NCBI RefSeq assembly: GCF_006345805.1
Contig: NC_042998.1
Coordinates: 167,462,001 to 167,526,000 of the forward strand
Reading direction: 5' to 3'
DNA: 64,000 nucleotides
DNA from: Octopus sinensis
Taxonomy: Eukaryota
Shown here: piece after piece, positions 286 to 63,916 of the stretch
Numbering within the stretch: the stretch's first letter is position 1
Layout of the letters: each line of letters opens with the position of its first letter
Translations under genes and position numbers: made by a program
The notes under the pieces: model-generated
Database searches by the model: none
The model's input: the letters and a program-made list of their open reading frames with translations, nothing else
What the model was told of the DNA's origin: nothing

Positions 286-899
286 TAACAATTAAGGATA
301 AAATCTTAATAAGGAATCTTAACAAGAAATTATCAGGTAGTTAGCGTGAAAACCTCATAAGAGAAAAAATCCGAAAATAATTTTTTCACTTGAAAATATT
401 TATTTATATTCTATAGAGGGCATTATTATACATAAATGCCACACGCTAAGAGGGACATAAGTCATTACTACCAAAATTTAACTAATCATACCGAATGCAG
501 CTCTCGAAGCAAGACATTTAAAAAACTGAATTTAGTTCTATATCACCTGTGATTTCGCAATTAACGTATTAAATACGTCTTTTGTTCATCAGTAGAACAG
601 ATTCTGAACACATCATAAATAAACATAACCAACATACCTAGCGAAGCCAAACAGACATCTGCTCCCCTCGGCGAAGCACATGGAAATGTTTATTCATCAT
701 ATATTCGGTAAATGGCGGGCTTTTTCGAACTGCATGTCGGTAGAAAAAGTTTTTCTTCGGAATAAATTTAACAATTAAGGATAAAATATTAATAAGGAAT
801 CTTAACAAGAAATTATCAGGTATGATTAGTTAAATTTTGGTAGTAATGACTTATGTCCCGCTTAGCGTGTGGCATTTATGTATAATAATGCCCTCTATA
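286..899 (-). mobile_element. Non-autonomous PLE pseudo-LTR / retrozyme-like element with hammerhead
   Basis: Direct repeat 286-339 = 769-822 (period 483 bp). Inverted repeat 412-492 / 819-899 (1 mismatch). Flanked by TA-rich microsatellites; hammerhead inside. Confidence 0.75.
535..598 (-). ncRNA. Type I hammerhead ribozyme
   Basis: Minus strand: GTTCTA-CTGATGA-(stem II containing acgtatt/aatacgt)-GAAA-TCAC-AG-GTGA-TA-TAGAAC. Stem I and stem III pair perfectly; AUA cleavage triplet; base of stem II imperfect. Confidence 0.75.
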
Positions 900-1077
900 C
901 AATCTATCTATCTATATATATATATATATATATATATATATATATATATATATAAACTTACTTGGAGGAATGTATGTATGTATATATATGTATATGTATC
1001 TGCATGTATGTATGTATGTATATGTGTGTGTGTGTGTCTGTTTGTCTGTCTGTCTGTTTGTGATTATATTCCCTGGT

Positions 1078-1260
1078 ACCCATCATCGTTTAACGTCCGC
1101 CCTCCATCCTGGCATGAGTGGGACGGTTTGGGAGGAGCCGTCCAGGCAGAAGTCTGTACTAGACTTCTGTAACAGTTTTGGCAGGATTTTTACAGTTGCA
1201 TACCCTTCCGAACACCAACCACTTTACAGTGTGGACTGGGTGCTTTTAAGTGGTACCTGC
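1078..1260 (-). mobile_element. RTE-related short repeat, 3' part
   Basis: Minus strand has ggaagggtatgcaactgtaaaa and ends gcggacgttaaacgatgatg, resembling RTE UTR motifs with a TGA-type tail. Confidence 0.5.
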
Positions 1261-1479
1261 ATTGACAGAGTCCCCAAGTACTTACAAGACAAAAGAAATT
1301 TCGAGAGGAGAGGCAGCATTGGAGAAGGTGATCTTGTGTCGGAGAAGGTTATTGTGAGAGAGACAGAAACAGGTGTCTTGCTGTAGAAGAGGTACAAGGT
1401 TATCCGGCCGGGGAGAGAGAGAGAGAGAGAGAGAGAGAGAGGAGAGAGAGAGAGAGAATTAAGACAGAAACGGGTGCGC

Positions 1480-2190
1480 TGCCACAAAGGAAATACCTGA
1501 GGGAAATGCAGGAGGAGAGCGAGAGTGGACGACAGCAGGATAGAGATGGTGGCAAAATGCTGGGCAAACTCAGAAGAGACGGTGATCAGAATGCAAATGG
1601 GATGGTTGAGTAAAGGAAGAAAGAAATGTAGATGATGGCAAGTGCCAGAGCATACCCTTGAGGTTCGAATGCAATAATATAAGTGGCAGGATATTGCGAA
1701 GGAAGCGTAACTGAAGAGTGCGGAGAGGGGTAGTGAGTGGCGAAAACCTGGGTATATATAGAGTCGGGTGGGGGTTACAGGATAGCAATGATACAGAGGA
1801 ACAGGGCTGAGAGGACAGGATCGGGGAGCTAGGCATAGTGTATGAAAGATGAAATGTGAGGAAGAGAAGAGACGTAGATTGGTTTGTTGGATGTGTGTGT
1901 ATGTGTATAGTTAATTTTTAAAAAACAACGAAGAAAAAAGACAGCAAAAAAAAAACAACAACACGAGGACGTTGTACATGCAAAGTTTTAATGAGACGCT
2001 CCGAGAAGGAAAGAAAGGGTAGGTGTTTTACGTTTCAAGCAGTACTCTTCTTCGGAAACACGAGACATAGGAAAGTTCAAAAGAAAAGGAAGGAGGTAAA
2101 GAATCACCAATAGTCTATGTGAAGTTACATTTATGAAATGACTGGAATTAGATAGACAAAGAGAAAGTACTTTCTGGAACAGAAGAGTGT
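1480..2190 (-). mobile_element. Degraded Penelope-like element with 3' repeat
   Basis: Decayed CT-rich coding-like tract. Degenerate hammerhead-like motif ccgaagaagagtactgcttgaaacgta at ~2030-2060 (minus). Confidence 0.35.
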
Positions 2191-2211
2191 GTATATATAT
2201 ATATATATATA

Positions 2212-2595
2212 TCTCTCTATATATAAACGGCAGTTTGTCTGTGCATGTTTCTGTGTGTCTGTTTGCTTGTACCTCACCCTGACCACGGCTTTCAACCGAT
2301 TCTGATGAAACTTGACACACACATAGCCCAATGTCATAATTCAAAACTAACGCAGCCAAAATTTTGAAAAGTTTCCCCAGTTCTGAAAAAATCGATAAAT
2401 TCGACATGGGGTCGAGAATCAGAAACACGAACCACAAACTGTCTAGGGGACGCAACTCCATCCTTTTTTAACTCTCAAAAAAAAATTTACCATCATTTTT
2501 TTCCATTTTTTTGCTATTTTTTGGCTATAACTCTCTAAAAATGCTTTATAGTTATTTCCCTTACAAACCTGAGCAACGCCGGGCGATACTGCTAG
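2212..2595 (+). mobile_element. Non-autonomous Helitron
   Basis: A|TC 5' end; 3' hairpin cctgagcaacgccggg followed by CTAG|T; no TSD. Confidence 0.8.
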
Positions 2596-60925: not shown

Positions 60926-61239
60926 CTATTTTTTTTTTTGGAAGTTTTCATGCAAAACAAGACCATGTAATTGAACCTGGAATTAGAACAGGGAAGAAAA
61001 ATATGCAAGTCATGTAAACTCTTTACTGCTCTGTTATTTAAATTCTAATGACAAAGCGTTGTTTCCTACTTGGAAACCAGCTCCTCATCACCGGAAGATT
61101 TCCAAGAATTAAAAAATTTAGCAGTATATATATATTATATATATATATATATATATATATATATATATATATATATATATCTATATATATATATATATAT
61201 ATATATATATGTGTGTGTATATATATATATATATATACA

Positions 61240-61370
61240 CCTGGGGCTAAATGCATCAGTAACACCCCCACCGCCCTGCCCTGTCCCTAGCCACATTCGG
61301 ATGGCTAACGTCCCTTATGTTATGGAGCAGTTACTGTATATACCTCGTTTAGAGAATTATTATTGCTATA
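61240..61370 (+). mobile_element. Diverged terminal fragment of the 43630-44043 family
   Basis: ctggggctaaa..tcagtaacacc..tagccacattc.gatggcta..ttattgctata; (TA)n flanks. Confidence 0.7.
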
Positions 61371-61532
61371 TATATATATATATATATATATATATGTGTG
61401 TGTGTGTGTGTGTGTGTGTGTGTGTATATATATATGTGTATATATATATATATATATATTATATATATATATATATATATATATATATATATATATATAT
61501 ATATAATATATATATATATATATATATATATA

Positions 61533-61953
61533 TTGTTGTTGTTGTGACTCCCTTCGGTTGTACCTAGAAAGTTACCCTCCGAGGCATAAGTCGGGCAAGG
61601 TTGCTTATGGAAGACCAGCAGTCGTCCAAGCATACCACCCTCCCCTCTCCACGTCACCGATGTTATCCAAGGGAAAGGCAAAGGCCGACACAGCTTGGCA
61701 CCAGTGACGTCGCAGCTCATTTATTAACACTGAGTGTGACAAGGCTGGCCCTTTGAAATACAGGTACAACAGAAACAGGAAGAAAAAGTGAAAGAAAGTT
61801 GTACAGCAGGGTTCACCATCACCCCCTGTCGGAGCCTCGTGGAGCTTTAGGTGTTTTCGCTCAATAAACACTCACAATGCCCGGTCTTGGAATCGAAACC
61901 GTGATCCTACGACCGCGAGTCCACTGCTCTAACCACTGGGCCATTGCACCTCC
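61533..61953 (-). mobile_element. SINE (head A + tail Z)
   Basis: OR1-like head fused to the tail of the 60280 copy; (CAA)n end. Confidence 0.85.
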
Positions 61954-63652
61954 ACACACACACGCACACACACACACACACACACACACACACATATGTA
62001 AGGATATTAAGTAAAGACTCTGAAGAAACTGCACTGGTATTATAGTAGGATTGCAATTCCAATGGTTACTAATCGGTGCAGTTGAAACGTCTGGATCTAT
62101 GTATGTACGAGTGTATATATGTATGTATATATACACACACACACACACATATATATATATATATATATATATATATATATATATATATATATATATATAT
62201 ATATATAAAGTATTAAAGGTAAAGCTATGACACTTTGTAATAATCCTTGTTATTATTGTTGATATACATGTGTGTGTGTGTGTGTGCGTGCGTGTAAAAT
62301 AGACTTGTAGGCGCTTAAACATACAACTGTACACATGAACGAGAAAATATATTCAAGCGGACACTCCACTTCCAATGCAGCTACATCTGTTCACATAAGA
62401 CTTTCACACACATGAGCTAATGTTAATTCTCTCAGGCGTCTTATCTGTACGTCTATGGCATTAGCGAGGGTGGTGATGGGCGCTGTTGAGTCTTATTTTC
62501 CCTCTATGTGTTTTTCCTTGACTTGTCACAACTTACAAATAGTAATACCCCCACATTTAGAACAACGAATGAAGGAACATATATACACCTGCATCAACCT
62601 GAATAAATGTCAGGACTGTGATGGTTGGCAGATTCCCCTCGGTCTATAATGTCATAGGGCAGAAATTTAGGAGCGCCACATACTGTCTCATACTCGACAC
62701 AAGTCTAATGAGACAGGAGCCATCTGAAAGTTGAGCAGTCTTAGTAAACCAAAAGAAAATATATAGCAAGAAAAACAACGATATACTTCTTAAGCGACAC
62801 AACATATCAAGAGTCAACGACTGACTGTATTTAGAAGTTGACAACTTGTGTATACATCAAACTAAATGTGTAATGTTTACAAAAGCACGAACGAAAACAA
62901 CCGCACATAGATTTCTATATATAAACAAGATCATATAAGATTTACTAATATGGTCATAAAACCTGAAATGTACAGCAGAATAGAAAATAAGATGTGACCT
63001 TTATGCCTGGAAAGCAATTATGTTAAACCTAGTACATATCTCAAACACACACTGCAAGAAGTACATACAAAAAGACATGCGTATGTGTTGTTGGAGAGTG
63101 AGACATTAGATCCCCGAACCGCACTTTCGGTCGTTAGATTCATCACACCAGCCTGATGAGGAATAATGATTATTTCTCTCCAGATCAATAACGAGGAACC
63201 GTGGTTCTTGATAATAAATCTCTCGCATAAATTAACACATATCACACTCTTCCAGACTGGCCAAATAAAGTTGTATTGAGCATTTTTATGCTGTTTTTTT
63301 TTTCGGGAAAATAAATTATATGTGGGTAGGTGAGGAAGTGTGTTGGAATAAAATTATGGAACGCTAGATGTAATACACAGAGACATATATATATAAACAC
63401 ACATACATACACATGCAGAGATACATATAAATGTTTGCGTGAATATATACATACATATATGTATGTATGTATGTATCTGAATATATATATATATATATAT
63501 ATATATATATATATATATTATATATATATATATATTATATATATATATATATATATGTATGTGTGTGTATGTATGTATGTATGTATGTATGCATGCATGC
63601 GTATGTATGTGTGTATATATGTGTGTATATATGTCTAATATAAGGTAATATT

Positions 63653-63916
63653 TATTCCCACTTAAAAGTGGTTGTTGCGTTAAAACACAGAATACTGCGT
63701 TATTTACCATGAGAGAACTTGGGCTGCATAAAAGCGCTCGTGTTTATAACACAAGTGGGAGATAATCGTCTCCTACCGCTGCTGGAACTGCCAGGGCATG
63801 TGATTTCGGCCTTCCTTGGCCTTGCATTTATACACCACAAGTCCATATGAGATCTCTTATGGTAAATAACGCAGTATTGTGTGTTAACGCAACATCCGCT
63901 TTTAAGTGGAAGAATA
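63653..63916 (-). mobile_element. Fold-back pLTR-type element with partial hammerhead
   Basis: Arms ~63653-63716 / 63853-63916. Minus strand GGCC-aaggaa-GGCC-GAAA at 63821-63804. Related to 13730-14280. Confidence 0.6.

Follow-up and report, generated by a model that had tools for sequence, protein, structure and literature searches.

Metazoan non-long-terminal-repeat (non-LTR) retrozymes form RNA circles in coral, mussel and axolotl, and a Penelope-like element (PLE) has been proposed as their helper (Cervera and de la Pena 2020, PMC7229834; this and the other publications are cited for the sections compared here), while a (TA)n-targeted, hammerhead-bearing PLE of the Hydra clade, Hydra-1_Obim, has been recorded from Octopus bimaculoides (Craig et al. 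2021, PMC8557442, supplement). Here we analysed a 64,000-nucleotide stretch of the Octopus sinensis genome (contig NC_042998.1, positions 167,462,001 to 167,526,000, forward strand; hereafter the window) together with its matches in the 2.72-Gb assembly of about 30 large contigs. It holds five families of short hammerhead units without an open reading frame (ORF), named A, B, C, E and F/G, which were likely retrotransposed in trans by Hydra-clade PLEs, probably from circles, and a sixth element, D, that is the truncated end of such a PLE.

With the metazoan retrozymes the octopus families share non-coding tandem units, type I hammerheads, low GC content and strongly folded predicted circles, and the mussel units of 350-390 bp are close in length to those of E and F/G. 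They differ in that octopus insertions mostly consist of one or two units with an inverted arm and a tail rather than long arrays, in units of up to 507 bp, (TA)n targets and frequent stem II inserts of 30-45 nt, and in being known from DNA alone (PMC7229834). Like Hydra-clade PLEs, they show a (TA)n target, tandems of the pseudo-LTR (pLTR) type, an inverted 5' copy, a one-sided tail and a common hammerhead style, and stem III of D is that of Hydra-2_aMil; unlike those PLEs, A, B, C, E and F/G lack an ORF. Octopus tails measure 47-117 nt (about 150 in one autonomous family) against the 30-40 bp described, and no hammerhead in the published list compared is identical to those of A-G (PMC8557442).

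The same origin, as non-autonomous PLE derivatives, and the same helper have been proposed for vertebrate retrozymes (Li et al. 2026, bioRxiv 10.64898/2026.07.22.740005) in a survey of 35 genomes (31 vertebrates, three insects and one coral, no mollusc) that defines families by tandem arrays; in Xenopus, 24 of 57 families match known repeats, nearly all of them PLE ends, and the rest are matchless, as here. The insertion footprint, analysed below for the octopus, is absent from the compared sections of that preprint. Chlamys elements such as MRC1 are also short non-autonomous PLEs with pLTRs and head-to-tail insertions, but belong to green algae, mostly lack a hammerhead and keep 3' similarity to autonomous partners (PMC8557442). 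No description of cephalopod retrozymes was found in the literature, with Repbase, Dfam and the supplements of PMC7229834 and the 2026 preprint, which may list them, outside the comparison. The window contributes five new families of an already published kind (non-LTR retrozymes or non-autonomous PLEs) and one ordinary pLTR fragment. Helper and template of animal retrozymes are still only proposed; with intact young Hydra ORFs beside thousands of candidate short-ribozyme sites bearing the same two-ended footprint, this genome offers natural parts for asking which PLE protein moves a retrozyme and whether its template is a circle.

Families A to G

The elements lie in the window as follows.

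283..906, minus strand: family A insertion; a single 483-bp unit at 288-770, with a partial tandem of 52 bp at 771-822 and an inverted arm at 819-906
13771..14266, plus strand: family F copy; unit of about 335-350 bp, inverted piece 13771-13857
16417..16992, minus strand: family B insertion; 434-bp unit, 142-bp partial tandem
43632..44043, both strands: family E insertion; sense arm 43839-44043 (plus, short end), inverted arm 43632-43841 (minus, long end)
48814..49707, minus strand: family C insertion; 507-bp unit, 168-bp partial tandem, inverted arm 49511-49707
49790..49904, minus strand: family D; 115-bp 5'-truncated 3' end (pLTR) of a Hydra-clade PLE
59116..59521, plus strand: ORF of a Hydra-clade PLE, 5' relic, 70% identical in DNA to the element at locus L222
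61240..61366, plus strand: relative of E (76%), 3' end and tail, without hammerhead
63647..63921, both strands: family G, a relative of F; sense arm on the minus strand, inverted arm 63823-63921

Families A, B, C, E and F/G are built of head-to-tail, short, non-coding units with neither ORF nor LTR, and full dimers occur in genomic loci of B and C. The preliminary description had taken the families to be mutually unrelated, which all-against-all BLAST bears out in that its sole inter-family match joins F and G, and the tandem periods it gave for A, B and C (483, 434 and 507 bp) are exact. The E unit measures 354 bp and is present in the genome as a four-unit array, and neighbouring F/G hammerheads are spaced 329-349 bp apart, for a unit of about 340 bp. 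The extent that the preliminary description gave for D, about 49790-50030, was too long, the element ending at 49904, and its (TA)n borders hold in part: a (TA)4+ run is no more than 15 nt away from 9 of the 16 element ends, compared with 7.2% of positions drawn at random, with the long 3' end of the A insertion abutting (TA)n, whereas the ends of B are 21 and 42 nt away and F and G are not TA-bordered. The claim that each family carries a CUGANGA/GAAA/UH hammerhead core, complete or partial, survives for A-D (complete), F (core intact) and, in part, E and G, but the E core reads UUGACGA, with U3 opposite G8, and the piece at 61240 has no ribozyme.

Every named element belongs to a dispersed repeat family. 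First-look searches of the genome returned 3096 candidates for A, 1390 for B, 1421 for C, 1801 for D, 2296 for E, 363 for F and 899 for G, which are not copy numbers; 40 per family were scored. The top-ranked copies of A, B, C and E, lying on average 2.4-5.5% from the column majority, mark these families as young to middle-aged, whereas F/G is old (70-79% identity among relatives), as is the F copy of the window (about 70-75% to its relatives).

Hammerhead ribozymes

Hammerheads were placed in six of the window elements.

535..598, minus strand: A, complete type I; predicted cleavage after 541 (AUA)
14098..14144, plus strand: F, core intact, stem I decayed in the window copy
16605..16680, minus strand: B, complete, 3-bp stem I; predicted cleavage after 16610 (GUC)
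43839..43876, plus strand: E, inversion cuts the core at U4 and stem I lacks its 5' arm
48965..49042, minus strand: C, complete; predicted cleavage after 48971 (GUC)
49828..49888, minus strand: D, complete; predicted cleavage after 49833 (GUU)

The sense arm of G is cut inside the hammerhead core at 63824, so that copy by copy the window tally is four complete, one decayed, two cut within the core and one without a ribozyme. The type I core CUGANGA / GAAA / UH with three stems, stem I open, is found in the window copies of A, B, C and D and in intact genomic copies of F.

Among 23 E-like sequences, 97.4% of stem cells are paired, with 14 cells altered on both sides against 2.2 in shuffled data; in 48 F/G sequences 83.8% of cells pair and 42 changed on both sides, against 24.3. 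Neither value was reached in any of 500 shuffles, which ignore the relatedness of the sequences. Both groups contain C-G as well as U-A at the 3-8 core pair (in F/G, n = 48, C-G 27, U-A 12 and C-A 7), U3-A8 being a published variant in Schistosoma PLE hammerheads (PMC4209133), and A and B each have one divergent relative in which stem I has changed. The stem covariation across copies that had been named as a check is thus present in E-like and F/G sequences, and the hammerheads are real at the family level; the per-copy case is weaker.

A relative of B (81%; loci L437:1954-2252 and L514-L543, among the loci fetched from the assembly) differs in stem I and has a stem III that is shorter; the first look gave 1850 candidates for it, and at C4:114.66 Mb three of its copies are spaced about 525 bp apart. 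In the flanks of fetched loci, dozens of other hammerhead types that have a palindromic stem III were seen incidentally, so that many more families of this sort than those in the window are likely present in the genome.

Insertion footprint and template

Units, motifs, covariation, ends, targets and read-through of the cleavage site can all be observed in the DNA. We mapped 176 arms from 109 loci of A, B, C and E on units rotated so as to start at the cleavage site, the windows for the 3'-end classes being set after the data had been viewed. Excluded before the count were six views that overlapped on one insertion, three duplicates that were nearly identical, the mis-merged loci L127 and L129 and a single piece from each of L128 and L075; arms that were split in L046 and L078 were joined manually. 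Each family has two fixed 3' ends beyond the cleavage site (A about +145/+262, B +198/+262, C +169/+275, E +173/+220), 169 of the 176 arms end at one or the other, and two-arm insertions combine one end of each class in 62 of 67 cases. This PLE-type footprint, of partial tandem, inverted 5'-truncated arm, one-sided tail and (TA)n target, was counted for A, B, C and E and seen, uncounted, for D, F and G.

The 5' ends are scattered, and the cleavage site was passed 163 times with only 3 stops (2.6 expected), which argues for a template continuous across it; the read-through fits a circular or an uncleaved multimeric template. The accumulation of 5' ends at the cleavage site that a linear cleaved template would leave was looked for and not seen. 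Arms longer than one unit number 82, a share inflated by full-unit queries. Tandem overlaps within one insertion differ by 2.8% in A and 3.8% in C, other insertions typically being about twice as distant; they share non-majority variants (91 columns in A, 164 in C), and few of their differences recur between insertions. Circular folding of the units gave z scores of -6.5, -8.3, -6.0, -5.0 and -3.0 (30 shuffles each). In E, 13 of 38 arms have their 5' end within the hammerhead (p 3e-5), but this cluster was set aside because a junction of that kind was already present in the query and no excess is seen in A-C.

By span length, 11 of the 109 loci contain two hammerhead spans (A 3, B 2, C 5, E 1), and hammerhead pairs of F/G occur in L158, L161 and L163. 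The partial tandem of C in the window has only the 3' half of a second hammerhead, and no window copy holds two complete ones, so the window copies are likely dead ends. Among the sequencing runs listed for family B, none is recorded as RNA. B-like pieces were present in four contig sets; such contigs reveal neither strand, circles nor transcription.

We picture a cycle in which cleavage, ligation and the identity of the helper are the steps that we infer. Two-hammerhead loci would be transcribed, and their ribozymes, probably acting as dimers through the palindromic stem III, would release unit-length RNA for a host ligase to circularise. A Hydra GIY-YIG endonuclease would nick (TA)n, the reverse transcriptase would start from a fixed AU-rich position that lies 140-200 nt downstream of the cleavage site and would then go round the template past its own start, leaving a unit plus a partial unit. 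The inverted arm with its tail would come from a second priming event at the other fixed site, located a further 47-117 nt along.

The template step has a serious rival that otherwise overlaps with this cycle, in which non-autonomous PLEs arise from a linear, uncleaved transcript of a tandem locus or by template jumps, the ribozyme being weak or having another job, and no circles form. The read-through fits it equally well, the 11 two-hammerhead loci could be its masters, and strong cleavage may not be needed, given that the youngest autonomous family carries the core change U4C in 37 of 37 matches. Against it stand the compensatory changes by which the short families have kept their stems and 3-8 pair, the overlap variants of A and C, which are as predicted by a single re-read template, and the accumulation of related retrozymes as circles in mussel and coral (PMC7229834). 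We hold the linear account to be possible but less likely. Taking circular templates and Hydra helpers together, the families might tentatively be seen as a natural record of rolling-circle reverse transcription by Hydra proteins, with ribozyme-made circles read through the junction from two fixed sites; ORF-less circles would keep working ribozymes and parasitise sequence-unrelated helpers, while the core of the youngest helper would have weakened.

Autonomous elements and the helper

By way of the ORF relic at 59156-59557 of the window we reached intact Hydra-clade PLEs with ORFs of 710-908 amino acids, whose translations show the RWK and DKT motifs, a CxCx5C linker and, at the C-terminus, a GIY-YIG domain; one family (L219) has RWL instead of RWK and no linker, and the Pfam match to GIY-YIG is weak (E value 8e-4, one of four proteins). 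The assignment to the Hydra clade was made by motifs, against section 11 of PMC8557442, and not by a tree. These elements carry a hammerhead in the pLTR and have (TA)n ends; in three Hydra families these ends fall at two fixed positions past the cleavage site, the longer 3' end being the start of the 5' untranslated region (UTR) and running on to the ATG. Their hammerheads and those of A-G are alike in a long palindromic stem III with a 0-2 nt loop and a frequent mismatch at the base of stem II, and predicted cleavage follows A, U or C, as in the published Hydra table (PMC8557442).

One Hydra family is very young, 150 of the 150 listed matches being 97-100% identical. This very abundant family (L264-L293, for example G000:C5:61735466) has the U4C core CCGAAG in all the hammerhead matches noted above, and its older sister, D, has the canonical CUGAAGA; U4C has been reported to cut activity in vitro considerably (PMC3088659). 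Pfam gave no match in the Hydra relic of the window. A stretch at 7097-7300 (minus strand) weakly matches the N-terminal part of the Hydra ORF (E value 4e-4).

Several observations weigh against mobilisation by Hydra proteins from circles. With no sequence link to any autonomous element found among the top-scoring candidates searched, the helper assignment rests on footprint and ribozyme style; likewise, 3' sequence shared beyond chance with an autonomous Hydra partner was not found for A, B, C, E or F/G. Only one of nine predicted Xenopus retrozymes cleaved in vitro, according to the part of the 2026 preprint compared here (bioRxiv 10.64898/2026.07.22.740005). The U3-G8 wobble occurs in 17 of 23 aligned E-like sequences, the active fold of the isolated window hammerheads is not the minimum-energy structure, and two of five covariation measures fail to beat shuffles in F/G. 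Within-insertion overlaps of B and E are not clearly closer than other copies, and antisense circles also fold well (z -1.8 to -7.2). Neptune-like PLEs, finally, are present too, with open frames of up to about 780-880 amino acids, ending in (TA)n.

Those ends, and the want of a sequence link to Hydra in five families, would suit a Neptune-like or other PLE as helper of some or all short families. We consider this unlikely, since the short-family hammerheads match the Hydra style, the two-end rule is one that they share with the three Hydra families (the only clade compared), and the abundant Neptune-like family has no canonical hammerhead in the 3' UTRs read (four loci of its own and five others). 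Hammerhead-like words in a Neptune-like 3' UTR were dropped, as they proved to lack stems on reading. A relic of a Neptune-like GIY-YIG endonuclease lies about 900-1100 bases upstream of the window (L121:8884-9111).

Family D and the search for parents

Family D differs from the rest. In L116 and L233 its pLTR and tail continue directly into a Hydra ORF, D-like sequence stands upstream of 28 of 30 related ORF starts, 3 of 30 loci with the 3' UTR of D carry a Hydra endonuclease upstream and on the same strand, and the very young Hydra family has a 3' end about 80% identical to D. Given this continuity with a Hydra ORF on both sides, the window D is an ordinary 115-bp truncated pLTR and not an independent short unit.

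That all families are such 5'-truncated pLTRs of full-length PLEs, with short periods produced by chance deletion, is true of D. In A, B, C, E and F/G, however, what precedes a unit, at a fixed period, is again that unit's own end. Sixty hammerhead-anchored loci (30 of A and 30 of B, including some insertions twice) show no shared exit into an ORF, the upstream DNA following the short unit to scattered 5' ends. Judged from coordinates, 181 Hydra-ORF loci and 30 GIY-YIG loci yielded neither a parent of A, B, C, E or F/G nor a unit that runs on into an ORF; a few of these loci have unit-like sequence next to the element, apparently as a separate insertion. PLE protein matches in the short families' own loci are few and not continuous with the unit, and no convincing protein remnants were found within the short units. 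Only the best 40 DNA matches per search were scored, so a rare parent could be missed. Truncation is nevertheless very unlikely as an explanation beyond D.

The preliminary description had proposed non-autonomous ribozyme retroelements moved by PLE reverse transcriptase, with PLE relics in the same stretch. The relics are there, in and beside the window, and units, hammerheads and footprint favour that origin for A, B, C, E and F/G but not for D, a Hydra pLTR; the alternative that it named, that every family maps to the 3' end of a full PLE, holds for D only.

Detection of hammerheads

A strict three-stem type I descriptor matched the window three times (592-, 49036- and 49883-), against a mean of 0.03 and a maximum of 1 in 100 block shuffles of the window; the bare word CUGANGA is near chance (33 against 23.9 +/- 4.7 shuffled). 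Separate Rfam scans gave no hammerhead match at A, C or D, and a scan of the whole window gave none there among the 150 of 302 matches listed, in which microsatellites dominate. Intact E copies span the whole Rfam Hammerhead_1 model (E value about 0.001) at 25.5 and 24.3 bits, below the 34-bit gathering score. That all motifs are chance matches in AT-rich repeats, as the bare word and the Rfam misses might imply, can practically be discarded given the descriptor counts, the E matches and, decisively at the family level, covariation. These results suggest that standard Rfam scans miss most hammerheads in the octopus genome.

Other repeats in the window

The window is rich in microsatellites. 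Relics at 5334-6386 (plus), 50055-50381 (plus), 33193-33567 (minus) and 56364-56741 (plus) include a piece of mariner transposase (HTH_48, E value 2e-6); others among them, without a Pfam match, resemble what we take to be C-termini of long interspersed nuclear elements. Positions 1-254, with the end of L121, belong to another common repeat ending in (TA)n (89% match in L475), with hammerhead-like words at 26 and 56 for which the full fold was not found. TA-flanked repeat families with partial tandems of period about 420-610 occupy 22359-23275 and 2226-2595 / 8740-8936 and recur in 18 and 6 fetched loci, respectively. Near-perfect inverted repeats lie at 12519-13302 and 21840-22264 (arms of 365 and 205 nt, 98%), the latter TA-flanked; no hammerhead was seen in either, and both are fold-back elements or resemble miniature inverted-repeat transposable elements.

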